Below, in pieces: positions 7,503-53,095 of a DNA stretch of 64,000 nt (positions within the stretch are counted from its first letter, which is position 1; every line of letters starts with the position of its first letter). Source of the DNA: Scyliorhinus canicula (lineage: Eukaryota); assembly GCF_902713615.1 (NCBI RefSeq), contig NC_052158.1, positions 32,157,990 to 32,221,989 of the forward strand, given 5' to 3'. The notes beneath the pieces are model-generated. The model made no database searches and had not been told where the DNA came from. It worked only from the letters and a program-made list of their open reading frames with translations. Both the position numbers and the translations under genes were made by a program.

Positions 7503-7603
7503 GTAGGAATCGGAGAGACATTGACAGTTCCTCATTGGGGGAGGGGGGAATGTGTCTATGGTTCTGGAACGATCAAGGGGTGAGCAGTTCAGACTGAGGG
7601 AAA

Positions 7604-8216
7604 GGGCTCGGGTCAGGGTGCGAGTGAGGGTCTCGGGTCAGGGCGAGAGTGAGGGTCTCGGCTCAGGACGGGAGTGAGGGTCTCGGGTCAGGGCAGGAGT
7701 GAGGGGCTCGGGTCAGGATGGGAGTGAGGGTCTCGGGTCAGGGCGGGAGTGAGGGTCTCGGGTCAGGATGGGAGTGAGGGGCTCGGGTCAGGGCTGGAGT
7801 GAGGGTCTCGGCTCAGGGCGGGAGGGTCTCGGGTCAGGGCGGGAGTGAGGGTCTCGGGTCAGGGCGGGAGTGAGGGTCTCGCGTCCGGGCGGAGTGAGGG
7901 GCTCGGGTCAGGGCGGGAGTGAGGGGCTCGGGTCAGGGCTGGAGTGAGGGTCTCGGCTCAGGGCAGGAGTGAGGGTCGTGTCAGGGCGGGAGTGAGGGTC
8001 TCGGGTCAGGGCGGGAGTGAGGGTCTCGCGTCAGGCGGGAGTGAGGGGCTCGGGTCAGGACGGGAGTGAGGGGCTCGGGTCAGGGCGGGAGTGAGGATCT
8101 CGGGTCAGGGCGGGAGTGAGGGGCTCGGGTCAGGGCGGGAGTGAGGGGCTCGGGTCAGGGCGGGAGTGAGGGGCTCGGGTCAGGGCGGGAGTGAGGGTCT
8201 CGGGTCTGGGCGGGAG
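7604..8216 (+). repeat. 25-bp G-rich minisatellite, about 24 units
   Basis: Unit GGGTCAGGGCGGGAGTGAGGG(T/G)CTC is repeated in tandem with point variants. Confidence 0.97.
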
Positions 8217-8361
8217 AATTGGGCTCAACATTCTGTTAGAGGGGCTCAGTATGAGAAAGGGTCAATCTGTCCCTTTCACTCGGGGTTCCAGCATCTCTGA
8301 ATTTCTTTCAGTTTTTCGTCACTCACTGAAAATTCCTTGTTTAACATTCCTTGTTTTACAG

Positions 8362-9972: not shown

Positions 9973-10128
9973 TGTCCTCCTGTGTCCTGGGCTGGGAACC
10001 CAATGTTGCACTGCCGGAAATCATTTGGAGGAGTGGAAAAGAGCATTGAGCGCCATTGACTCTTTGACAACATTCAAAAATACGAGTTATAGAAAATGAA
10101 TAAAGTTGTTTATAATTAAATAAATAAA
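9973..10128 (+). other. Possible terminal 3'UTR exon with poly(A) signals
   Basis: TCTTTCTCTTCCCCCAG acceptor at 9972 and AATAAA at 10099, 10119 and 10123. It could instead belong to the LTR of the adjacent ERV. Confidence 0.35.
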
Positions 10129-10785
10129 GCCAGAGTGAGTGTGTCCGATCTGAAGTTAACATCTCAGTCACCCAGCCTGAGTTTGAATTAAGAGGGCAGT
10201 GAGCCCCATATGATGACCAGGATCAAGTGGATGAAGGGAGTATAAAATAAAGGACTGGGTAGCTGATGAATTCTGAGGGCATGTTCGAACCACCAATGTT
10301 GCAGACAAATTGTTACAGCAAAAGATAATTAAAATTTCAGAGGCAACGGCAACCTCCAAAAATCAGCCTTGAAGATTGTTCAGTAAACCTCATGTGCATA
10401 GACGAGGAGAGACTGAATGGGAAGATAGCGACAATGGTACCTGGGAACGGGTTTAAATAGATTAAGGAGGGACACTGTCTTGTCTTCTCCCCCACATTGG
10501 GGTCAGACCCCAAAACCGGTCCATTAACATGTTGATTATCTGAGACCTTGAAATGGCTGTCTCGGCCAGAATGGGAGGTGGCACTCAGGGCGTACCTAAG
10601 CCATAAATGGCCCAAATGGATAAATCATTTTGGGAAAGAATTAAAGGGCCTGGGACACACTGGACAGCGACAGTGGGAAGAAGCCCATAGGTAAATGCAT
10701 GCCTAAAAGTGAGACACCCGTGGCAATACTTACTTACACCCGAGAATTAAATGATAAAGAAATGGAGATTGAAAATTTAAAGTGA

Positions 10786-10862
10786 GGGCAGCACGGTGGC
10801 GCAGTGGTTAGCACTGCTTCCTATGGCACTGAGGACCCGGGTTCGATCCTGACCCCCGGCCA
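10786..10862 (+). mobile_element. SINE head only (tRNA-like boxes A and B)
   Basis: GGGCAGCACGGTGGCGCAGTGG...GGTTCGATCC. Confidence 0.8.
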
Positions 10863-11631
10863 CAACAACAATCCCAAAGGCAAAGACCCAGTCCACTGGT
10901 GCTCCTTCCCTTGGAAGGACCACAGATGCAGGAATAGGGATATGCCTCCATGGCCCCTGTTACAAAGGCCACATAATGTTTTACATCAATTTCTTCCTTT
11001 TGCAACCTTGAGATTTACTTCGTGCTGCATGGTAGTGATAGTATCACTACTTTATGATCCTCTGCAGTACCGCCTGTCATATCCACCTTTTCCTTTGCAG
11101 TCTTTATAACCATTGCTCCTGCAATGTCCATAATTCTATTTTCACTGATGCATGAATCCTGCTGTAGAAATGTGAGGTCAGTTTGAAAACTATTGATATA
11201 TGAAGCCAATGCAATAATGTAGGTTTCATAGATGCTGGCATTTCATTTTTTATACGTCCATAGTTGTGAGTCAGGACTGCAAAACTTCATCAAACTGTTT
11301 TTTATAACTTCTGCAACATCACTACCAAGGGAACCTTTGTGCTTGAATTTGCATTTTTTAAGCCGATGGCCAACCTTAATCTGGAACTCTCAGGATATAA
11401 CCCGAGTGTGTGATGGTGTCAGGCCTCTCCGATGTCGGTGTGTTGCGCTGGGCGGGATGGTGTGCGATGACCTCTTGTGGATGGTGAGGTAGGAGGGCCG
11501 TCCCGCTGAATTCTTAAACATCCAAAATTACAAACCTACACTGGTGTACTGGGAATACCATAATTCTGAATGGATTCACTGGCCAGTCACAGCAAGGAGT
11601 GGATATCACACAGCTAGACTTCAGATTTAGA

Positions 11632-11863
11632 GGGCAACACGGTCGTGCAGTGGATAGCACTGAGACTGTGGTGCTGAGGACCCAGGTTCGAATCCCGGCC
11701 CTGAGTCACTGTCCGTGTTGATTTTGCACATTCTCCCTGTATCTGCCTGGGTTTCACCCCTACAACCCAAAAGATGTGCAGGTTAGGTGGATTGGCCACA
11801 CTAAATTGCCCCTTAGATGGAAAAAAAAATAATTGGGTACTCTAAATTTATTATAAAAAATAA
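11632..11863 (+). mobile_element. HE1-like SINE, short-tail subfamily
   Basis: Consensus head and core, flanked by TTCAGATTT(A/G)GA duplications. Confidence 0.9.
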
Positions 11864-12475
11864 TTCAGATTTGGAGGTTAATTTTGTTTTCATCCAGCCT
11901 TTCTCATAACCCTAAATGTAGAAGCAGAATATATTCTTGGCTCCGACATGATGACAAGTTTTGATTCATCCTTTGACCAGCAGATGGAGAATTTGGCAGA
12001 AGTACAGTGGATGTTCCCACAGGAGCTTACCCCGAATGAATATGTACAGTCGGAGAATTGTGGATCAGTCCCTCAGTTCTGACGGATGATCCACGAGCAC
12101 AAGAAATTATTCAGCAACGTGTTGAGGCATTTGCAACTCGCAAACATGACTGTGGCCAAATGCTGGGAGAAATTGGGAGAGAAGGCCCAGACCCCAAGCC
12201 ACAAAAGTAGTACGGCTTCCTCAAACAGGCAGAATGTGGAATTCTGACTGTAATAACAGGCTTGTTACGAACAGTTTGATGAAGTTTTGCATCCACAAAT
12301 AATTCACTGATTTGGCCAACAAGAAAGATGAACGGATCCTGGTGACTGACAATTGACAATCGAGAATTAAATAAGGTTAATCCGTTGACCGAATCCCAGG
12401 TCACAGCTAGCCCTGAGACTATGTTAAAACAGACCCCACAAAATCAGTACTTCACTGTATTAGATAACAGTAATG

Positions 12476-12660
12476 GTGGTTTAGCACATTGGGCTAAATG
12501 TTTAGCTTTTAAAGCAGACCAAGGCAGGCCAGCAGCATGGTTCAATTCCCGTACCAGCCTCCCCGAACAGGCGCTGAACTGTGGCGACTAGGGGCTTTTC
12601 ACAGTAACTTCATTGAAGCCTACTTGTGACAATAAGCAATTTTAATTTTCATTTCAATTT
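12476..12660 (+). mobile_element. Second short SINE family, inserted in the ERV RT
   Basis: It splits the YFTVLD...PLAKECQY reading. An inverted copy of the same sequence lies at about 13362-13548. Confidence 0.8.
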
Positions 12661-13200
12661 CCTTGCAAAGGGAATGCCAGTATAAATTTGCATTTACCTT
12701 CCAAGACCAATAATAGACACGGACTGCTCGCCCCAAGCGTTTCACAATTCACCTCTAGTCTTTCTCCAAAGACGAGCCCAAGGACTCAAACATTTTTCCT
12801 GGCCCAACTGTTTGGTTCAATGCGTAGACGACTTATTTCTGCAAAGAGATGGGAGGGAGGACCACCTACAGCTTCTAGCCTAGTTGTCAATGTTACTCAC
12901 CTCCCTGGGTCTAAAATTGAACCCTAAGAAAGCTCAAATCATGAAGCCCCAAGACACATATTTAGGAACAAATACGTATTTATGGAAAACAGGAATTAGA
13001 GGGAAAATATGGAGAAACAATATTAGACTTCTTGTTCCGAGAGATGTAAAGTCCCTCCGATCCTTTCCAGGATTAGTCGGCTTTATCGCAAAAGCCGCTT
13101 TGTCGGTACTCCTCAAGAAGGACATCTTGTGGTAATGGATGGAACGACAGACTCAGGTTATTGTGGACCTGAGAAAGGCTTTCGCCAAAGCCCCAGCTTT

Positions 13201-14068
13201 AGAACAGAGAACATACAGTGCAGAAGGAGGCCTTTCGGCCCATCGAATCTGCACCAACCCACTTAAACCCTCACTTCCACCCTATCCCGATAACCCAATA
13301 ACTCCTCCTGACCTTTTTGGTCACTAAAGGCAGTATATCATGGACAATCCACCTAACCTGAAAATGAATGAAAAAATGAAAATCACTTATTGTCACGAGT
13401 AGGCTTCAATGAAGTTACTGTGAAAAGCCCCTAGTCGCCACACTCCGGCGCCTGTCCGGGGAGGCTGGTACAGGAATCGAACCGTGCTGCTGGCCTGCTT
13501 GGTCTGCTTTAAAAGCCAGCGATTTAGCCCAGTGAGCTAAACCAGCTACTGCACGTCTTTGGACTGTGGGAGGAAACCAGAGCACCCGGAGGAAACCCAC
13601 ACAGACACGGGGAGAACGTGCAGACTTCGCACAGACCGTGCAAATCAGCAATGGTCATCACTAGAATTTTATTTCCACATTTTTATTTAATTCAAACTTC
13701 AGCATCTGTAAGTGGCTTGATGTGAACCTGGGACCCCAGAGTGCTCTGGATTACTAATCCAGTGGCAATACCACTACACCACCACCTCCCCACCTTTAAT
13801 AATAATAATCTTTATTGGCTTACTTTAACACTGCAATGAAGTTACTGTGAAAAACCCCTAGTTGCCACACTCCGCCACCTGTTCAGGTTCAGAATGTCCA
13901 AATTCGCTAACAGCACGTCTTTCGTGACTTGTGGGAGGAAACCGGAGTACCCGGAGGAAACCCACGCAGACACAGGGAGTACGTGCAGATGCCGCACAGG
14001 CAGTGACCCAAGCCGAGAATCGAACCTGGGACCGTGGCGCTGTGAAGCAACAGTGCTAACCACTGTGC
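13201..14068 (-). mobile_element. Cluster of four SINE copies (HE1-like 13201-13637 with nested short SINE 13362-13548; tRNA-SINE head 13660-13790; hybrid SINE 13795-14068)
   Basis: Reverse-complement matches to the SINE families seen elsewhere in the window. Confidence 0.82.
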
Positions 14069-14619
14069 ATCCATGCCATCACAGGCCTCAGACTCATCAC
14101 TCCCATTTTCCCTATAAGTAGCAGCAACTGAGTCAACCACTTTGGCTGTTCTGAGACAAGAACAACATGACAGGATCAGTCGCATGTGCATCCTGACTCC
14201 TGATCCCCACGGAACAGAGGTCTTCTGCATGTGAACGGCATCTGTTCGCAGTTTTGTGGGCAGTACAGCATTTTCCATACATTATTGGATTAAACTCTAT
14301 CTATTCTCAATGAACATTCGCCAATCCAGCTGTTACTGGACGGATGTATGAAAGATGGAACAGTACATCAGAACCGCATAGTCCGATAGACGCTAATGCT
14401 CCAAGGCCACGACATTACAGTTAAGAAAACCAGAACACCTATCCTCCTCGCAGACAATCTCAGTTACGAAGTGGTACAGGAGGAATGTCAGGTCTTGACA
14501 GCGAACAATTCCAACTGACCAAAGGAAAAAGGAAAGAAACCCAGGGCGCCCCAATCCGTAAATAATTTTGTCAACGCCTCCTCCATGGTGGAGGATGGCA
14601 TTCGGAGGACAGGTTTTGG

Positions 14620-14949
14620 TATCATAGAATTTGATTATCATAGAATTTACCGTGCAGAAGGAGGCCATTTCCAGCTCTTGGAAAGTACACCCTACCCAAG
14701 GTCAACACCTCCACCCTATCCCCAAACCCAACCCAACACTAAGGGCAATTTTGAACACGAAGGGCAATTTAGCATGGCCAATCCACCTAACCTGCACATC
14801 TTTGGACTGTGGGAGGAAACCGGAGCACCCGGAGGAAACCCACGCACACACGGGAAGGATGTGCAGACTCCGCACAGACAGCGACCCAAGCCGGAATCGA
14901 ACCTGGGACCCTGGAGCTGTGAAGCAATTGTGCTATCCACAATGCTACC
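14620..14949 (-). mobile_element. HE1-like SINE
   Basis: Near-consensus reverse complement with a CATAGAATT tail repeat. Confidence 0.92.
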
Positions 14950-16490
14950 GGAAGGCACACCATAAATCAACCAAAAGGGAACGTTAGAGCAGATGAATTG
15001 GCAAAGCAGGGCGTCCACAAAAGGGTGTCATGGTAACCCCCAATTGGTGAACAAATTGATCCTGTCACCGTTAATCAAATGAAGAGGGCGGATTTGTTAG
15101 AGGCACAGATGGCAGATCAGTATTTGAAACGAATCATAAATGAAGTGTTTCCGGAACAAATATAAAGCTAAAATATCAATAAAGGACGGTTTCATCCTTA
15201 AGGACGGAGGGTATGTGGTGCCGGCCCAGAATCAGAACCAGATAATCTATCAACGTCACGATGTCCAAGGTGTGAATGCAACTACAGAAAGAATTCAAAT
15301 GTTTTGTTGGTGGCCCAAAGTAGATGGAGACATAGAGCATTGTGGAAAATTGTCTAGTTTCTGCCCAAAATAATCCAGATCACAATGCTGAGAAAGGAGA
15401 GCTTAGACACATGAGGCCAGTAAGTGGGCCATGAAGGAATTTACAAATAAACTATGTTGGCCCCTTTCCACCAGGTAAGAAGGGTTACAAATATATTTTC
15501 ATCATCATTGATACCTTTAGTAAATGGATTGAAGCATTCCCTACCAGGGCAAACACGCCAAAGTAACAGCCGGTGTGCTGAAAACACAGGTGTTCACTAG
15601 AATGGGACTTCTCCACAGCATTGAATCAGACCAAGGAATTAGTATCACCGCTCAGGTAAGCAGAATGTAACAACCCTAGTGGGAATAATACAGAAATTCC
15701 ACATATTTTATCCCCACAGTCTAGCTGTATTGTGGAAAGGATGAACGGAACCTTGAAAAGTGTGATTCAGAAAACTGTCCAACAAAATAACTCTATTTGG
15801 AATGTAGTCCTGCCCATTCTCCAAACGTTAGTACAAAATACCATATCCAACTCAACAGGCTTTGCTCCCCATATCCTGATGACAGGACCCCCCATGAGAG
15901 CAGTGGAACCCTTGTTGAGGTTGGATGTCAGAGCCAGAATTGGCAGCTGTCAGCCATGAAAAAGCTGTACAACAATTGAGGGAAAATACCCAAGTCATCC
16001 TTATGGCTGCTGCAGTTAAAATGGGCAGGAAAGGAAGGGCAGCAAAGGATATTTTTTATGGGAAGGCCAAGCTTGTGCATGAGATTGGGAAAAAACGTTA
16101 TGCTCCAAATTCACCAACCTGGAATGTTTTTGTCCCCGAAATATAGTGGACCCCATTCTACAGTAGATAAAGCAAGTCCCTCAGTTAACAAAATTTCATT
16201 AGACTCTGGTAAAGCGAGGCGGTACCATATAACCTAATTAAAGCTATTCAACGCCCAGGGCAATCACCAGCACCATATGTTGCTGGATGCGGATGAGGGA
16301 GACGCTGTTCCATCTCCCGCTCTTCCCCTCGTAGAGAATGGAGCATCTGCGGGCACTGCCATTATCTCTGATCAGGCAACAGGCTTGCAGAAGTGCCAAA
16401 AGCCGAAATCTCGAAGGAAATCTCCCATTATGCCCCCAGGTTGGGAGAGAATAAAGGGTATGGAGAGACAATCAGACCGACACAATCCAA

Positions 16491-18116
16491 ATGAAGAAGA
16501 AATTCTGTCCGATTGGCGAGCAAGATTGGTACGAAATTAGAGTAGGTATTACCTTTATGTTCAAAGAGGTGGACCACGTGCCTTTTCACCATAGGAGTGG
16601 TGGCGATAACAAGGACCTGGAGAGGACCGTCAGGTTGCACAAACCTGGTAGGAACGAGCTCCCAACAAAGAGTGTAATCTGGGATGAGAAGTGGTTCGAA
16701 CTATCACGCGTTGACTTTTGTAAAGATACAATTAAGACTCAGAATTTTGTCGTAGATCTTCGAGCTTTGGTGACTGAAAGCATGAAACAGTTTTCAATGG
16801 AGAAACATCAACAAAAGTTATTCAACTGTGAGAACTGTAACAAGATCAGGATTTGGGAGACAAAGGATTGATTGAAGTGCCCTGACATGCCCAGGACCCA
16901 GTAATGGGTTGATAGTGATAACATGGATAAAGGTTTACATGATCATGTGAACCAGGAGTTAGTACCAGGAGTTTTAAATATTGTAAAATTGGGCTCCCGG
17001 ATTGGGGTCTTATCCAGATCAAGAGATTATAATGGGCAGACTAAAATATTGTTGGGCCAAGAAGTAGGGAATGATGGGGAAAAGAGTAGAAGAAAGGGCT
17101 GTGTTAAATGATGCAGCAACCCTGTACAGTACAGGAATTTCTTTATAAAGTTAGAGTGCCCAACTTATATTTTCCAATTGAGGAGCAATTTAGCGTGGCC
17201 AATCCATCTAACCTGCACATCTTTGGGTTGTGGGGGTGAAACACACGCAGACACGGGGAGAATGTGCAAACTCCACACGGACAGTGACCCAGAGTTGCGA
17301 TCGAACCTGAGACCTTGGCACCTTGAAGCAGCAATGCTATGTACAGTACAGGAATTAGACTTGCAAAATCTGGATGAAACAATTGAGAGTTTTAACAAGA
17401 AAAGTGAAAACTCTCTCAGGGAAATTAAACAAAAATATTAAACAAGAAACTGAGGTAAATGAAGAAAAATATCAAGCAGGGTTATATAATGATACAGACC
17501 AGGATCAAAATCACATTATTTTCAGTATTTATAGGAATTGGATGACAGAGCAATTGAGGGGAAATTTGGAAGAAGTGAATAAAGGATTTGTGTCATCATG
17601 GATTACCGAAGAGAAGTCACAAAATTTGCTAAATAGCGACATTAACCTGATCATTACAGGATGCTGACGTAGACAGCTAATTAAAGTTTGGTTCAATGAA
17701 GATTGTAAAGGGATCAGTGGAGAAACAATCGGGATGGTATGAGGGATTCCTGTCATCCCACCTGAAAAGTCTGAGATGATGGTATTTGACATAGAAAAAA
17801 TCGGGATCATCCAGCATGATGTGTGGATGGAACACAAATATATGCCCCTAAACTCGGTAGAGTGGAGCAAAACATTCACAGGAACTATGGAGGACAAATG
17901 TCAGCAAGCCAACAAAATTATAATCTCCTTTTCCAATATACCTGTTATAACCTGCACAAGACTTCCAGGGCCGGACCAATTAGTCTACCCATGAACCTTG
18001 TTGAATATGAGCTTCCCCCCTGTGGGGCGGGGGCCCCATCAGCAGAGCAATGGACATTATGTATAAAAGATCTGTCAGAGTGGGAGCTGAGCAGTGTAGT
18101 CCCAACCAGGACCTGA
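16491..18116 (+). pseudogene. env-like glycoprotein remnant, truncated before the TM anchor
   Basis: Located after integrase. A basic cluster KSRRK at 17082-17096 is followed, across a frameshift, by AVLNDAATLYSTGI, then a heptad-like ELDLQNLDETIESFNKK and a Cys-bearing beta-rich part (GIPVIPP...VFDIEKIGII). Confidence 0.62.
17140..17339 (-). mobile_element. HE1-like SINE in env
   Basis: 17-bp TSD TGTACAGTACAGGAATT at 17123-17139 and 17340-17356. Confidence 0.92.
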
Positions 18117-18768
18117 GTATATTGGACAAATAGTTACTTCAGTCATAAAAAAACAGTTTCTTTACGTTTCTCGTGCGGACTCCACTGTGGCTTCAAAATT
18201 GGCGACAAGGATGGTGTGGAGCTACATATGGCGCTGTTAATCATTGGAAACATGCCACACTCGTACCGCTGGGGAAAGGTTTGCATTAGTTTCAAAATGC
18301 TGCTCGTTGGGAGACTCAATAGGCAGGATTCTCCCTTTTGGGTACTAAGTCCCAAGCCCGCCGGAAAAAGGGCGAGAATCACTCCGGACGTTTTCCTCAA
18401 AAATCAGGGGTGATTCTCAGTATTCCAGGGGGCTGGCAGGGCCTCGGCATACATCCCACAGCTCTGGCTTCTGGCGGGGCCCTGCTGCCCTGACAGCACG
18501 ACCGCACATGCGCACAGCAGCCGACATGGCGGAACCACACAGCGGGCCTGCGCGGAGTGAGGTAGGTCAAGCATCCAGCAGAGGGCAGCAGAGCAGAGCT
18601 TCTGATTGGCTGTTCTGGGGACATTTGCATATGTGCAGTGCGGTCAGCGTAAGTTGAAGGTGGTTTGTGAAGGGGCTGTTCTTGAGTGACAGCTTTACCC
18701 GAAACACTACTCACGTACTGTCTCCCACCCATCCTCCTCCTCTAACCAAAAAAAAAGTTCTGTCCGTT

Positions 18769-19059
18769 GGCCTAGTTTCAGCCGTTCAGAGGAGGAGGAG
18801 CAGTCTCTGGGTGAGTATAAAAACTCACTTTAACCCGGGGATCGAGGCCTAGTTTCGGGAGCCGTTCAGAGGAGGAGGAGCAGTCTCTGGGTGAGTATAA
18901 AAACTCACTTTAACCCGGGGATCGAGGCCTAGTTTCGGGAGCCGTTCAGAGGAGGAGGAGCAGTCTCTGGGTGAGTATAAAAACTCACTTTAACCCGGGG
19001 ATCGAGGCCTAGTTTCGGGAGCCGTTCAGAGGAGGAGGAGCAGTCTCTGGGTGAGTATA
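18769..19059 (+). repeat. 80-bp tandem monomers in the CR1 5'UTR (3 full units plus 1 partial)
   Basis: Units start at 18769 (77 bp), 18846, 18926 and 19006 and are nearly identical. Confidence 0.96.
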
Positions 19060-19199
19060 CAGACCTAACGGTAACTTCCTGTTTTCCACTTTTTTTCAAA
19101 CGTGACATCAGAGGGAAGCAGTGATCTGATTGGTTGATAACCAATCTGCCCCAAATTTAAAACTCGTAAACTTAAATTAAACAAATTAATTAATTAGAG

Positions 19200-20156
19200 A
19201 TGGCTGGTCAGGTGATGTGCTTAAGCTGCTTGATGTGGGAGCTGACAGATCCCATTGCGAGCTGCAGCGACCACATCTGCAGTAAGTGTTGGCTGCTCGA
19301 AGAACTCCGGCTCAGAGTTGATGAGCTGGAGTCTGAGCTTCACACACTGAGGCACATCCGGGAGGGGGAGGCTTACCTGGACACTTTGTTTCAGGAGGCA
19401 GTCACACCTGTCAGAGTAAATAGTTTAAATCCTGCCAGTGGCCAGGGACAGCAGGGTGTGACTGCAAGTCAGGCAGGTAAAGGGAACCAGCAGTCAGGAA
19501 CTCAGGAGCCTCAGCCCTTGACCCTGTCCAACAGGTACGAGGCACTTGCTCCCTGTGTGGATGGCGAACAGGGCTGCAGGAAGGATGAGTCAGCTGACCA
19601 AGGCACCATGGTTCAGCAGGCCATTCAAGGGGAGGAAGTAAATAGGCAAGTTGTAGTTGTAGGGGATTCTATTATCAGAGGGATAGATAGTATCCTTTGT
19701 GAGCAGGATAGAGGGTCCCGCATGGTATGTTGCCTGCCCGGTGCTAGGGTGCGGGACATCTCTGACCGGCTTGAAAGGATATTGGAGAGGGAGGGGGAGG
19801 ATCCAGTTGTTGTGGTCCATGTCGGTACCAACAACTTAGGCAAGTCTAGGAAAGAGGACCTGTTTAGAGATTATAAAGAGTTAGGATTCAAATTAAAAAA
19901 CAGGTCCTCAAGGGTCATAATCTCCGGATTACTGCCCGAGCCACGTGCAAATTGGCATAGGGAGGCAAGAATAAGGGAAGTTAACACGTGGCTGAAAGAG
20001 TGGTGTGGGAAAGAGGGGTTCCTTTTCATGGGACACTGGCATCAGTTTTGGGACAGGGGGGACCTATACCGTTGGGATGGTCTCCACCTGAACCGAGCTG
20101 GGACCAGTGTTCTGGCGAAAAGAGTAAATAGGGTGGTCAATAGGACTTTAAACTAG
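19200..20156 (+). CDS. CR1 ORF1p: Cys motif, coiled coil and SGNH esterase
   Basis: 318-aa ORF with CxxC...CxxC and a heptad region. SGNH blocks GDS, PGA, HVGTN and DGLH are present. Confidence 0.95.
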   Translation: MAGQVMCLSCLMWELTDPIASCSDHICSKCWLLEELRLRVDELESELHTLRHIREGEAYLDTLFQEAVTPVRVNSLNPASGQGQQGVTASQAGKGNQQSGTQEPQPLTLSNRYEALAPCVDGEQGCRKDESADQGTMVQQAIQGEEVNRQVVVVGDSIIRGIDSILCEQDRGSRMVCCLPGARVRDISDRLERILEREGEDPVVVVHVGTNNLGKSRKEDLFRDYKELGFKLKNRSSRVIISGLLPEPRANWHREARIREVNTWLKEWCGKEGFLFMGHWHQFWDRGDLYRWDGLHLNRAGTSVLAKRVNRVVNRTLN

Positions 20157-20290
20157 AGATTGGGGGGGAAGGGAAAGTCAGGGAACCAAGAGGTGAAGGA
20201 ATCAGTGGGAAGCGTAGCTGCTTAGGATTACAAAAAATCACGAAAAGACAGAGCTCAGGAGAGGTTACGATAGTCCCCATCTCACAAAAT

Positions 20291-34646: not shown

Positions 34647-37600
34647 TCCCCTTTTATAAAGAAATGTGTGGTTATGGTAATAAATAATGTGTGGTGAGAA
34701 TGTGCCTAACTATGTGTGGAGTGCGAAGGCATATTTACAAGATTATGTACATAAGAACTAAGCTATTTACATGGGAAGGTGCCTGATGCAGATGGACAGT
34801 ATGCAACAAAATAGTAACTAGAGCATCATTATATACAAACCAGGGAATCGACTTAACAAAGCAACGGAACAATTCAGAGAGTCCATAAATTCGAAAAGTT
34901 CATAAATTTAGTCTTTGAGGTGGGCGACGAATTTTGGTTGACCGCCTCAAGGGTGGGTCAGGAGCGGGCTGGAGTGCGTCAGTCAGAGAGTGGCAGAGCG
35001 ACAGGGAGCTCTGCAAATTCCATGGCAGGGTTGTCATGACGGCGAGGCGGGACTTGGAGATCACGTGGCGAGCGTGGAATGAGATGGAGTGCACGCCGCT
35101 TGCATCGCAGATGAGAGCCATCCAGTAGACGAGCCAGGAATGAGCGGGGGGGCCACTTGTCGGAGGACAACAGCGGTGGCAGACTAGCCACCATCCGGAA
35201 GATGGACGCAGACGTTGTCATCGGGAGCCAGAGCAGGGAGATCGGTTGCACGGGAGTCATAGGCCGCCTTGTGCTGGGCGTGAGACAGCTGCATCCGGTG
35301 AAAGACCGGAATGTGGTCGAGGTCTGGGACATGGATGGACGGCCCCATCATCCTCAGCGTGCCATTCATGAGTAGTTGAGCTGGCGACAGGCCAGTGGAC
35401 AAGGGGGCAGAGCAGTAGGCCAGCAAGGCAAGGTTAAAACAGAACCAGAATCGGCAGCCTTGCATAGGAGCCGTTTGGCGACATGTACTCCCTTCTCTGC
35501 TTTGCCGTTGGATTGGGGGTACAGGGGACTGGACGTTACATGGGCAAAATTGTACCACCTGGCAAAGTTGGACCATTCTTGGCTGGCGAAGCAGGGGCCA
35601 TTGTCTGACATGACCGTGAGCGGGATGCCGTGTCAAGTAAAGGTTGCTTTACATGCACAAATGACTGCAGCCGAGGTGAGGTCATGTAACCGTATCACCT
35701 CCGTGTAATTCAAGAAGTAGTCCACAATTAGGACATTGTCTCGACCAAGCGCATGGAACAGGTCGATCCCCACCTTGGTCCACGGTGCCGTGACCAACTC
35801 ATGGGGCTGCAGGGTTTCACGTGGCTGCGCCGGCTGGAAACGCTGACAGGTGGGGCAGTTTTGCACGGTGTTGGCTATGTCCTCGTTAATGCCAGGCCAG
35901 TACACCGCCTCTCGGCCCGTTGGCAGCACTTCTCCACTCCCAGGTAGCCCTTATGTAGCTGTTCCAGGACAAGCTGGTGCATGCTATGCGGGATGACAAT
36001 GCAGTCCACTTTTGGAAGAACCACGTCTGCTACCACCAGATCATCTCTGACATTATAGAATTGAGGGCATTGGCCCTTGAGCCCCCCGTTCGTTAGGTGG
36101 CGCTTGACACGCTGGAGCAAGGGGACGGCAGCTGTCTCGTGACTAATTTGGACGAGGCGTTCATCGGAGGCAGGTAGATTGGAGGCAGCGAATGCCACAT
36201 GGGCAAATCCTGGCAAACAAATCCCGCTGGGTCACATGGAGTGGTGACAGACCGGGAGATGGCGTCAGCAACAGTGAGTTCCTTGCCCGGGGTGTATACC
36301 AGCTGGAAGTCGTAGCGTCTGAGCTTGAGAAGAATACGCTGGAGGTGAGGTGTCATGTCGTTCAGGTCTTTTTGAATGATATTGACCAGTGGTCTATGGT
36401 CTGTCTTGACAGTGAACTGAGGTAGTCCGTAGACATAATCATGGAATTTAACGACTCCGGTCAGAAGGCCCAGGCACTCCTTTTCAATCTGCGCATAACG
36501 CTGTTCGGTGGGGGTCATCGCACGTGACGCGTATGCCACGAGGGCCCGTGATGAGGCCTCATCACATTAAAGGAGCTCCAATGCCCGATTGACTGGCATC
36601 TGTAGAGATTTTGGTCTTCTTGGCTGGATCAAAAAAAGCTAAGACCGGGGCCGTGGTCAGCTTTGCCTTGAGTTCCCTCCATTCGTGTCCATGGGCAGGG
36701 AGCCATTGGAAGTCTGTTGTCTTCCTGACCAGGTTCCTGTGAGCCGTGGTGTGAGAGACGAGGTTAGGGATGAATTTCCCTAAGACGTTGACCATGCCCA
36801 AGAAGCGGAGGACCGCCTTTTTGTCCTCCCGTGTCTTCATAGCCTTGATGGCAGCAACCTGGTCCGCATCTGGCTGCACACCGAATTGGGAGATGTGGTC
36901 TCCGAGGAATTTAATTTCAGTTTGACCAAAGATGCATTTGGCCCTATTGAGGCGGAGGCCATGCTCATGTACCCATCTGAAGATGCGCTGGAGGCGATTA
37001 ACGTGCTCTTGCGGGGTGGTGGACCAGATGATTATGTCATCGACATAGACGCGAACGCCTTCAATACCTTCCATCATCTGTTCCATAATCCTATGGAACA
37101 TTTCTGATGCAGAGATGATCTCAAACGGCATCCTGTTGTAGCAATATCTTCCAAAGGAGGTATTAAATGTGCAGAGTTTCCTGCTGGATTCGTCGTGCTG
37201 GATTTGCCAGAATCCCTTTGAGGCGTCAAGTTTGGTAAAGAACTTGGCGCGAACCATCTCACAGGTGAGTTCTTCGCGCTTCGGAATGGGATAGTGCTCT
37301 CTCATAATATTGCGGTTGAGGTACTTGGGATCAATGCATATTCTCAGTTCGCCGGAAGGTTTTTTTACACATACCATGGAGCTGACCCAGTCGGTCGGTT
37401 CCGTGACTCTGGAAATCACTCCTTGGTCCTGGAGGTCCTGCAGCTGCTGCTTGAGCCGGTCTTTAAGGGGCGCTGGGACCCTGCGAGGTGCGTGCACCAC
37501 AGGTGTGGCATTTGGTTTCAATAAAATCTTGTAGGTGTACGGGAGCGTGCCCATGCCCTCGAAAACATCATGGTATTGGCTAATAATGGCGTCGTGCTGC

Positions 37601-50442: not shown

Positions 50443-51858
50443 CTATCTCGTTGCACTGATATTCTTGTACTGACACAGGAGGAGACGCTTGAAAGTTTTC
50501 TTGAATGTTGGATTGCACAGCGCATAGCAGGCTGGGTTGACGGTGCTGTTAATGTAAAATATCCAATATCCAATAATCCAGACCGTGTTGGGGACACAGG
50601 CTGAGCAGAAGGTGTCGATGAGAACGAGGACATTGTATGGGCTCCAAGTGATGATAAACGCCAGCAGAATAGCCAGAACGGTCTGTGTCACCTTCTGCTC
50701 TCGGGATACAGTTCCCTTCTTTTTCTTAGCTGGGATATCAGTCACTGTAATGATCTTATTGTCTACCCTGATCTCTCCATCATTCCCACCCTTACTGGCG
50801 ATAACTGGCACCATTCTTGTTGTGGTGTCACAGTGGTTATTCTTTTTAAACTTGCTGACTATTTTCAAGCAGGAGAGTTTGGAGTTGTCCATCCTGAAAC
50901 AGGTTGGAGTAGTGGATGTGCTCTCCTGTATCACCAATTGTTTCTTCTGCTTTGATTGGGCCCCACTGGGGGAAGTTGACTCAATGACGAGCTCCTCTCC
51001 TTGGCCACAATTATCACTTATTATTTCTCCAGTCATTTTGCTCTTTTGCATCTTGACCTCTGGTAAGCCATCAGGAGCATTTGAAAAGTTGTTATTATTC
51101 GGCTCCATTATTTTGCCCTTCGCTGCACGATGAGAAACGGTCCTCTTGCTCGATTCGGACTCCTTTTTATCTTCCATTATTCGACTTTTGCTGGCACGAG
51201 ATATTTTCACGTATAAAATCATCATGATGAACACAGGGAGGTAGAAGGCACCTATGGCAGTGCCAAAAGTGACAACTGGATTTGAGAAAAACTGTATATG
51301 ACACTCGCCCTCGCCGACTGTCCGCTCCCCTACGATGAACTGCCAGAAGAGAATGGCAGGAGCCCACAGGATAAACGACACCACCCAAACAGCAGCAATC
51401 ATCAATCCTGCCATTTTTGCTGTTCTCCTCACGGGGTAGCTGAGGGGCTTTGTCACGCAGAAGTAGCGGTCAAAGCTGATGACCAGGAGGCTCATGGACG
51501 AGGCATTACTGACAACATAATCTAGAGCAAGCCACAAGTCACATACCACCGGGCCCAAAGGCCAGTAGCCAATCAGAGTGTAAATGGTGAATAGATTCAT
51601 GGACACACCGACAATCAAATCAGCACAGGCCAAGCTAAAGATAAAGTAATTGTTAATAGTTTGCAATTGTCTGTTTACTTTGATAGAAACAATGACCAGG
51701 ATGTTTCCAATAATTGTCAACACGCTCAAAGATCCTGTCACAATCACAGCGAAGACCAGCTCGACTGTTTTATAAGGACTCCCTGTTTCAGTGACAACCA
51801 GGTCTGTTGGATTGCTGAGAGATTGACCTGTCTGTGTCGAGTTAGCCGCCATTCCCAT
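50443..51858 (-). CDS. chrm2: Muscarinic acetylcholine receptor M2-like, single coding exon
   Basis: Intact 7TM ORF: [48 protein letters not shown] and an M2-type end YKNISATR. Start ATG at 51858 or 51852 (the ORF-track start at 51876 is GTG). Splice acceptor at 51899-51900. Orthologue versus paralogue is unresolved. Confidence 0.93.
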
Positions 51859-53095
51859 CTGATGTGTAGTTAGCACTGATGAGGCATAAGTGTAGAAACT
51901 AAAAGAAAAATTGATTAGGAAACAGATTTCAGATGAAGTTAAAGGACAACTGGTACCTCATTGACGTTCTGCCGGCAAGACCTTCAATATCTTTGGCAGG
52001 AGGGACTCTGTTTTAATTAGGAATTATTTCATGGGCCGTTTCCTGTACAATTGATTATGAACTAATAGTTAATTACTTCTGTCGAACTGAATGAAGATGT
52101 TGATGAGCGACATTGCAGAGATGTCTCTCAATGTGTTAAATCCATTGATCCAATCACCTGCGAGCTCTGCAAATGTTCACCTGTTCATGGAAGAAAGGTT
52201 TGACCCCTGTATTTCCTTTATGTTCATGTCTCAAGGTCACAAATTCCTGTAAGCCCATAACATCCAGGTCTACTCGGGAAGTGATGTTAGAAGAACGGTT
52301 GCACCAGTGTCACTGCTCTCTCAGAGACTGAACAACCACCCTATCCAATAGGTTTTCAGTCATTCAGATGGAAAGCAGGGACTTGGAGCTTCACTACTGG
52401 GATGAGGGAAAAAAGTATCTGAGATTATGCAGATATCATGCCTTTCAAAGCAGATAGCCATTGGGTCACATTAATTGATGCCTAATACCAGTTTTAATGC
52501 TTTAATGTATCTAATTATGTAACTTACATGTTTTATGATGCTGTCGTGCTAAATACAAATGCAAGAATGATTTCCAGATGTTGGTATTTCAAAACAAATG
52601 TAGGAAACACATCAGGGGATATAAAATGACCAACATTTCACTGAAGCTGGCACTGTTAAAGAAACATCATGCTTCATATTGTGTGTTACTGAATGCTTAA
52701 ATAGTTCATTTATCAATATTAAATATCTCAGCAAGAATTCTCAATATTGTTCAAACTTGATTTAAGGCATTGTAAAGGAAATATACAGGAAGAAAATGCT
52801 GAGTTAGGATAGTGGGGATAAGGGCATGAGAGAGGAAGACAGAATGGATGATAAAACAAGAAGGATGAAAGAAAATGGGACAGAGAGGGAGGTGGAAATG
52901 TCACAGAGAAGAAACTGTAGACTACGAAACAGGAGAATTAGTAAAAGAAATTAAAGTGGAACCACTATTTGCGATGGGCGTACCAGAGTAAGATATAGCA
53001 GGAGGAGAAAATGATGTCATTGTTTCTGCATGTCTGAAGTGTATTTGGAGTTCAGGGCATAGAGTAAAATTAATTGGACATTAATTGAAAATTAA

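Follow-up and report, generated by a model that had tools for sequence, protein, structure and literature searches.

A decayed endogenous retrovirus of the shark Scyliorhinus canicula probably combines a canonical-type reverse transcriptase with an F-type envelope related to that of lokiretroviruses

Lokiretroviruses are defined by their reverse transcriptase (RT), and none were recorded in six chondrichthyan genomes (PMC7947760, Fig. S1). Separate origins of the lokiretroviral and canonical envelope proteins (Env) have been argued from the absence of similarity between them (PMC9040795). Canonical retroviruses are described as having a retroviral class I Env, and lokiretroviruses one related to viral fusion (F) proteins, in PMC13524379 and its preprint; bioRxiv 2021.11.23.469661 deals with gamma- and beta-type Env only, and foamy Env has an F-like structure (PMC11468914). 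Endogenous retroviruses (ERVs) related to the snakehead retrovirus (SnRV) are known from the elephant shark as CmiERV lineage I (PMC4422223) and as a clade named Huo (PMC6001957), the Env type not being described in the accessible portions of either paper. Here we describe an ERV in a 64,000-nt stretch of the 4.2-Gb genome of the shark Scyliorhinus canicula (NC_052158.1, positions 32,157,990 to 32,221,989, forward strand; hereafter the window, whose own numbering is used throughout), which an earlier note had presented as a decayed lokiretrovirus.

We conclude, with a probability of roughly 0.87, that the element derives from a shark retrovirus with a canonical RT and an F-type Env related to lokiretrovirus Env. 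The locus itself is dead and encodes nothing functional; it is one copy of an old shark ERV present in many copies. In the literature searched, which for the most part excluded subscription journals, no canonical ERV of sharks or amphibians was found to be described as having an F-type Env, and the accessible portions of PMC11089739, PMC10435555, PMC13709493, PMC12193657, and PMC5210030 contain no description of this ERV family.

An RT search of the genome revealed a young related family at about 50% identity. On the plus strand of the window, Pfam matches stand in the order RT (RVT_1, E 6e-7), tether RNase H (E 2e-4, under the cut-off; RT_RNaseH_2 E 1.7e-4 and RT_RNaseH E 4e-4), integrase zinc finger (Integrase_H2C2, E 1.4e-5), and integrase core (rve, E 2.4e-3, under the cut-off). 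The pol remnants at 11542-16315 are colinear with the open 1408-residue Pol of the young family, the mapping covering the protease, RT, tether, both ends of the second RNase H, and integrase; the decayed ERV with colinear RT, RNase H, and integrase noticed earlier is thus borne out. The main polymerase features are as follows.

12061 to 13201, plus strand: RT, in several frames (RVT_1, Pol mapping, RT trees).
14091 to 14400, plus strand: tether, a degenerate first RNase H (RT_RNaseH_2 and RT_RNaseH matches; Pol residues 490-600).
14555 to 15030, plus strand: second RNase H, two ends flanking a short interspersed element (SINE) at 14624-14950 (Pol mapping).
15140 to 16315, plus strand: integrase with zinc finger, core, and GPY/F-like tail, broken (Integrase_H2C2, rve; Pol residues 860-1251; tree).

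The YxDD position of the RT reads CVDD (12821-12832), and the RT region is interrupted by a SINE at 12478-12653 that is lacking in a duplicate of the locus. Two RNase H domains had been claimed: the tether and both ends of the second are present, and the core of the second is deleted, about 110 residues being absent (Pol 550-682 stops at 14623 and Pol 793 begins at 14977; the RNase_H domain spans Pol 662-805 in the open young-family copy). The GPY/F-like tail of the integrase, also claimed, is there and reads GPH in the window.

The RT tree was built from 47 chosen rows. The supplement of PMC7947760 gives RT motifs by which the SnRV and lokiretroviral rows were identified; a genome length of 10,688 nt confirmed the SnRV record. 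The foamy, gamma, epsilon, delta, and further lokiretroviral references came from motif scans, with group labels given by motifs and tree; Pfam backed the labels of one foamy and two lokiretroviral records, and lokiretroviral rows L120 and L121 were also recognised by their Env. Two window pieces and the young family formed a clade (100/94) within a frog-coelacanth group (90/91), which nested in the canonical retroviruses (100/99), in agreement with an earlier RT tree. Lokiretroviruses (100/100) were sister to the canonical retroviruses, the foamy (100/100) and Gypsy (100/99) clades were separate, and the window RT, which stood in a polytomy with SnRV, belonged to none of the foamy, gamma, epsilon, and ERV-L clades. 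The groups provisionally labelled birdetc and fishI were not clades in the tree. Forcing the shark RT rows into the lokiretroviruses was rejected (approximately unbiased test, p=0.005). All seven RT-bearing window pieces or domains that scored preferred the frog/coelacanth or an allied group over lokiretroviruses, and the shark RT motif is of the LPQGFHNSP type as against the (C/L/M)PFGY type of lokiretroviruses. With the young Pol as query, identities were 50-54% to frog and coelacanth proteins, 38% to SnRV Pol, and 36-39% to lokiretroviral Pol, and no viral contig close to it was found. By sequence comparison, the window RT belongs to the canonical retroviruses, in a shark-frog-coelacanth group that is likely part of the class III or snakehead-related assemblage. 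Of the RT and integrase phylogeny that the earlier note had suggested, the RT part recovered the expected separation from the Ty3/Gypsy and foamy clades and did not recover a placement among lokiretroviruses.

The second RNase H, with the young family as proxy, also lay outside the lokiretroviruses (p=0.02 against joining them). Lokiretroviruses are characterised by a second RNase H that groups with that of foamy viruses and by an integrase of the loki/CGIN1 type. The open young-family Pol has both the tether and the second RNase H, remnants of which are seen in the window, and its second domain matches PF00075 at E 1e-15. A true second RNase H, together with the two fully supported branches that part the RT from Gypsy, makes a Ty3/Gypsy errantivirus with an F-type env extremely improbable, although F-type env is widespread in errantiviruses (PMC13524379) and the top matches of the predicted Env among predicted viral structures (BFVD) include invertebrate-virus glycoproteins and baculovirus F. 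The young-family integrase is 43-45% identical to the lokiretroviral one and 33% identical to that of SnRV. In a tree built without CGIN1, the integrase formed a polytomy with lokiretroviruses and did not join the foamy/SnRV/gamma/epsilon clade (99/97); grouping it with lokiretroviruses was not rejected (p=0.30), but was unsupported and not the best tree. These integrase identities, the dual RNase H, and an Env nearest to lokiretrovirus Env among the references would suit a true lokiretrovirus, the first from a cartilaginous fish, and such a member could have escaped the survey of six chondrichthyan genomes (PMC7947760). Nevertheless, with both RT and second RNase H outside the lokiretroviral clade, an RT motif of another type, and an integrase in a polytomy with that clade rather than inside it, the membership proposed in the earlier note is highly improbable.

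The envelope lies in two parts, separated by a nested element.

16530 to 17942, plus strand: 5' part of env, broken (profile of database relatives, DNA matches to other copies, model of 17359-17940).
27839 to 28210, plus strand: 3' part of env (tblastn E 1e-6 to 8e-3; DNA matches to copies L032 and L074).

The order in the 5' part is a hydrophobic leader-like stretch, a surface or F2-like region, a basic cluster, a fusion-peptide-like stretch of small residues (about 17098-17142), a SINE (about 17143-17340), a heptad helix, and the F-core region; upstream of about 16870 the assignment is by position and DNA matches to other copies only, with no protein match. The 3' part carries a second heptad region, a Trp-rich membrane-proximal motif, and a transmembrane (TM)-like stretch, and about 190 bases of env are absent at the junction with the nested element. 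The basic cluster, fusion-peptide-like stretch, heptad helix, and Cys-containing beta region 3' of the helix that had been described as a downstream glycoprotein frame are all present, but not as one frame, being interrupted by stops, frame breaks (one of which parts the basic cluster from the fusion peptide), and the SINE. As had been stated, ISD and CX6CC motifs were found in none of the six window env frames, nor in five long relatives. No Pfam family matched the window env frames.

When 27 env pieces of this genome were combined into a profile, it matched 31 of 1.84 billion proteins. Among 20 relatives looked up, 18 clusters were named (14 shark, three frog, and one coelacanth). In the long relatives, of 673-749 residues, a furin site is accompanied by a fusion peptide, heptads, and a Cys-rich beta region, and most of them also have a TM segment. 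A profile of 21 relatives, free of rows from this genome, was run by hmmsearch against 219 reference open reading frames (ORFs): the E-values were 2e-16 for window 17503-17925, 7e-18 and 2e-15 for lokiretrovirus Env, no better than 0.002 for foamy Env, and 0.86 for SnRV Env. With a shark-only profile, lokiretrovirus Env gave 2e-10 and 5e-9 and the reversed controls no better than 0.73; the reverse search gave 2e-11, and hhalign aligned the env profile with lokiretrovirus Env at a probability of 97% (E 3e-11, 274 columns). For SnRV Env, hhalign gave probabilities of 34% (E 4e-4, colinear, weak) and 10%, and pairwise BLASTP gave no match. A word-based protein search with the env piece had no match, profile A1, made from this genome's copies alone, had chance matches only against PDB, and a PF00523 scan of the genome was silent everywhere, controls included. 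ESM Atlas returned viral glycoprotein clusters, under its reliability mark. As judged from these comparisons, the env family is closest to lokiretrovirus Env among the reference viruses tested, followed by foamy Env, with SnRV Env marginal.

By sequence, the env profile has its best PDB match in foamy Env (E 0.002, over the TM subunit), and foamy Pol and integrase are among the high-ranking PDB matches, as would befit a divergent foamy-like ERV. This reading is very unlikely: the RT lies outside the foamy clade, which comprised five exogenous foamy viruses, fish foamy-like ERVs being compared by motif only; gag and pol share one frame with a single stop between them in three of the four young copies with two long terminal repeats (LTRs); and Foamy_virus_ENV matched none of 36 env family members.

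Structure prediction points in the same direction as the profiles. The AlphaFold model of P0135, a full-length shark relative, has a mean predicted local distance difference test score of 63 (mostly 75-95 in the core and below 50 in the N-terminal 179 residues). Its top Foldseek matches are the F proteins of Newcastle disease virus, human parainfluenza virus 3, Langya virus, and respiratory syncytial virus (E 6e-11 to 7e-10), and comparison with Nipah F gave a VIA Z of 11.6 and a root mean square deviation of 4.6 Å over 281 residues. In BFVD it matched, with low TM-scores, the Env of walleye epidermal hyperplasia virus (1e-9) and of walleye dermal sarcoma virus (3e-7), and foamy Env. Given the match to the walleye Env models, class I retroviruses of fish may also have an F-type Env. 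For the window piece, the first 14 Foldseek rows listed were all F proteins, and a wide VIA search with its model gave coiled coils only. Taken at family level, the env is supported as a predicted F-type class I fusogen. The non-gamma, F-like env of the earlier note is upheld, and the fold and profile comparison it had proposed succeeded for the family profile and the P0135 model, both of which match F-type or lokiretrovirus Env, and gave no significant fold match for the window piece taken alone.

Several of these proteins merit separate mention. The walleye epsilonretrovirus Env models are BFVD entries Q9WHI8 and A4GTG3. P0135 (named Chiloscyllium punctatum), P0137 (named Pelodytes ibericus), and P0150 are long open env ORFs in host genomes, and are candidates for recent insertions or domesticated F-type fusogens. 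Besides a source name, a weak V-set match of P0150 (E 0.045) hints at a putative Ig-like N-terminal domain in these proteins. P0142, named as a Heterodontus francisci fbxo15 isoform, is an annotated F-box transcript that ends in the C-terminal part of env (second heptad region, Trp motif, and TM); exonisation or an annotation artefact is a possible origin.

The association of this RT with this Env recurs in the genome. The env piece has at least 148 genomic matches (150 of 303 candidates scored). Of 33 stretches taken from around env matches, 13 have a pol piece 5' of env and in the same orientation. In all seven env-bearing copies that retain an RT, that RT scores best against the frog/coelacanth group. 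An RxKR-type site preceding the fusion peptide and a WWD motif preceding the TM are found in several other copies. At one locus (L065), env-end copies stand in tandem within 10 kb (10 tblastn pieces).

Several observations weigh against a canonical-RT retrovirus with an F-type Env. The frog-coelacanth-shark RT group has a support of 90/91 only and stands in a polytomy with SnRV, ERV-L, and foamy viruses, and the RT trees covered neither fish foamy-like ERVs nor CmiERV lineage I. No fold match of the 194-residue piece from the window itself reaches significance (best Foldseek E 0.15); it is P0135 that provides the fold evidence, and P0135 is only about 15-20% identical to that piece and linked to it by profile. 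PF00523 matched none of the 36 env family members, while two lokiretrovirus Env controls matched, and profile A1 missed lokiretrovirus Env. Furthermore, the frog and coelacanth Env matches may belong to other elements than the frog and coelacanth Pol matches.

How the canonical RT and the F-type Env came together can be explained in two ways. A canonical retrovirus may long ago have acquired a 3' module, integrase plus env, from a loki-related lineage by recombination. The canonical RT is accompanied by an integrase outside the foamy/SnRV/gamma/epsilon clade, for which a lokiretroviral clade is not rejected at p=0.30, and by an Env much nearer to that of lokiretroviruses than to those of foamy viruses or SnRV; domain swapping is common in retroviruses (PMC7947760). 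However, the integrase-loki clade was neither the best tree nor supported, slowly evolving shared ancestral characters would give the same picture, and foamy Env and, by predicted models, walleye epsilon Env are also F-like, so that we regard this acquisition as possible but somewhat doubtful. With equal reserve, we tentatively consider that the F-type Env is the ancestral retroviral envelope. The shark-frog-coelacanth lineage would then have kept an integrase-env module shared with lokiretroviruses and would bridge the Envs of lokiretroviruses, foamy viruses, SnRV, and walleye epsilonretroviruses; the lokiretroviral and canonical env genes would not have been gained independently, and the gamma- and beta-type Envs would be later replacements.

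Because foamy Env shares the fold (PMC11468914) and the walleye Env models match, an F-like env is not diagnostic of lokiretroviruses and is unusable for calling an element one. A canonical-RT lineage with an Env detectably similar to lokiretrovirus Env removes the premise that the two Env types have no similarity, and the origin of the retroviral envelope becomes testable by ordinary phylogenetics. Entry proteins of the F type probably occur in more retroviruses than has been supposed. The window locus itself is an ordinary dead copy.

The young sister family is high-copy with open gag and pol (copies read: L086 and L088-L093); about 36 of the 150 matches listed, counted by eye, lie in open frames of at least 1400 residues. 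In four copies, the LTR pairs are 99.2-99.8% identical. Its primer-binding site (PBS) is complementary to a genomic tRNA-Arg(TCT), which ARAGORN called in one of the four loci checked. SnRV is primed by tRNA-Arg. At the env position, the three copies read have only a conserved ORF of 113-114 residues with a signal peptide, a short Ser/Thr-rich stalk, a TM segment, and a basic tail, the likeness to the TM end of Env being weak (E about 0.2). With env reduced to this small ORF, the young family likely spreads within cells; the retained mini-Env may have a function. The search for intact copies suggested in the earlier note thus yielded an old copy with two LTRs (L074, 76% identical) and a young family with an open pol, whose env has shrunk. 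The ancestral virus would have used tRNA-primed reverse transcription, likely from tRNA-Arg as in the young family. As in known retroviruses, Pol would have been made by readthrough of the gag stop, followed by integration, and furin would have cleaved the Env, which would then have mediated cell entry by a refolding of its fusion peptide and two heptad regions like that of paramyxovirus F.

The other features of the locus are as follows.

10099 to 10140, plus strand: terminal bases of the 5' LTR (the duplicate copy is homologous from 10099 onward, starting at the end of that copy's LTR).
10541 to 10785, plus strand: gag N-terminal remnant (tblastn with the N-terminal part of young-family Gag).
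11371 to 12060, plus strand: protease region, broken (Pol residues 55-73 at 11542-11598 and 90-118 at 11891-11977; DNA match to copy L035).
13202 to 14090, no strand: SINE cluster breaking up pol (repeat families D5, D9, D13, D14, and I12; gap in the Pol mapping).
17943 to 27838, plus strand: nested Ty3/Gypsy element, separate from the retrovirus (LTR 17943-18196, PBS-like motif, decayed gag-pol).
28800 to 28810, plus strand: polypurine tract (sequence; context as in the young-family tract).
28811 to 29072, plus strand: 3' LTR, internally shortened (74-88% matches to the 5' LTRs of L016 and L074; TG...CA ends).

No PBS was recognisable behind the 5' LTR end at 10140, and the stretch 3' of the LTR in copy L074 is missing from the window copy. 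The region preceding gag, where lokiretroviruses may carry an smc gene, is deleted in the window. The gag reported earlier survives as an N-terminal scrap (10566-10679; 44% identity, E 2e-5), the remainder being missing according to the DNA alignment to other copies. No protease catalytic motif was recognisable in 11371-12060, a region containing a SINE at about 11630-11870. The homology of env to other copies stops at 17942. Among 39 other genomic matches to 17900-18300, 30 begin at 17939-17945, which indicates that the LTR of another element starts at 17943. The element therefore does not end at 18150, as had been proposed, a position within the LTR of the nested Gypsy element; env resumes at 27839 and the 3' LTR ends at 29072. 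The nested element, for which no second LTR was found in the window, contains a long interspersed element (LINE; about 18569-23246) and a further insert (25987-26692).

A 94% identical duplicate of the locus lies 62 kb upstream. It carries the nested Gypsy element too, but without the LINE and at least one SINE; the absence of the LINE from the duplicate indicates that this insertion is recent. The window copy has undergone deletions in gag, RNase H, and env, many SINE insertions, insertion of a Gypsy element in env, and local duplication, and the LINE is in the window copy only.

The LINE, which we take to be CR1-like, has at 19194-23167 an open ORF1 (GDSL-esterase-like) and a 1007-residue endonuclease-RT ORF2. 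The window also contains tandem arrays of 25 bp (7514-8276) and 80 bp (18780-19064), a Gypsy-like element in two inverted copies about 81% identical (195-2042 and 34714-36546), and an intact M2-like muscarinic receptor gene (50446-51957, minus strand), whose closest proteins are from sharks and rays (best, catshark 90%); many M2-like paralogues in sharks appeared among the protein search results.

Compared with known systems, the family resembles the SnRV-related ERVs (Huo and CmiERV lineage I) in the RT motifs shared with SnRV and in aquatic hosts. SnRV itself is similar in its tRNA-Arg priming, to which the PBS of the young family points, and in a non-gamma Env whose TM subunit is long and whose likeness is colinear but weak; it was not recovered as the RT sister, and its integrase and Env are far more distant than those of lokiretroviruses. 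Lokiretroviruses are alike in an F-type Env with furin site, fusion peptide, coiled coil, conserved Cys pattern, and TM, in the tether plus second RNase H (a dual arrangement common to all retroviruses), and in a similar integrase. They differ in that the RT and second RNase H of the shark family fall outside their clade, and in that its Env relatives, at 673-749 as against about 560 residues, have a longer N-terminal region, a Trp-rich membrane-proximal motif, and no PF00523 match. Foamy viruses share the F-like Env core and profile similarity over the TM subunit, but differ in RT clade, gag-pol arrangement, and Env size. The paramyxovirus and pneumovirus F proteins share the predicted core fold of the ectodomain at about 10-14% identity, the shark protein, unlike them, being encoded by a retrovirus.

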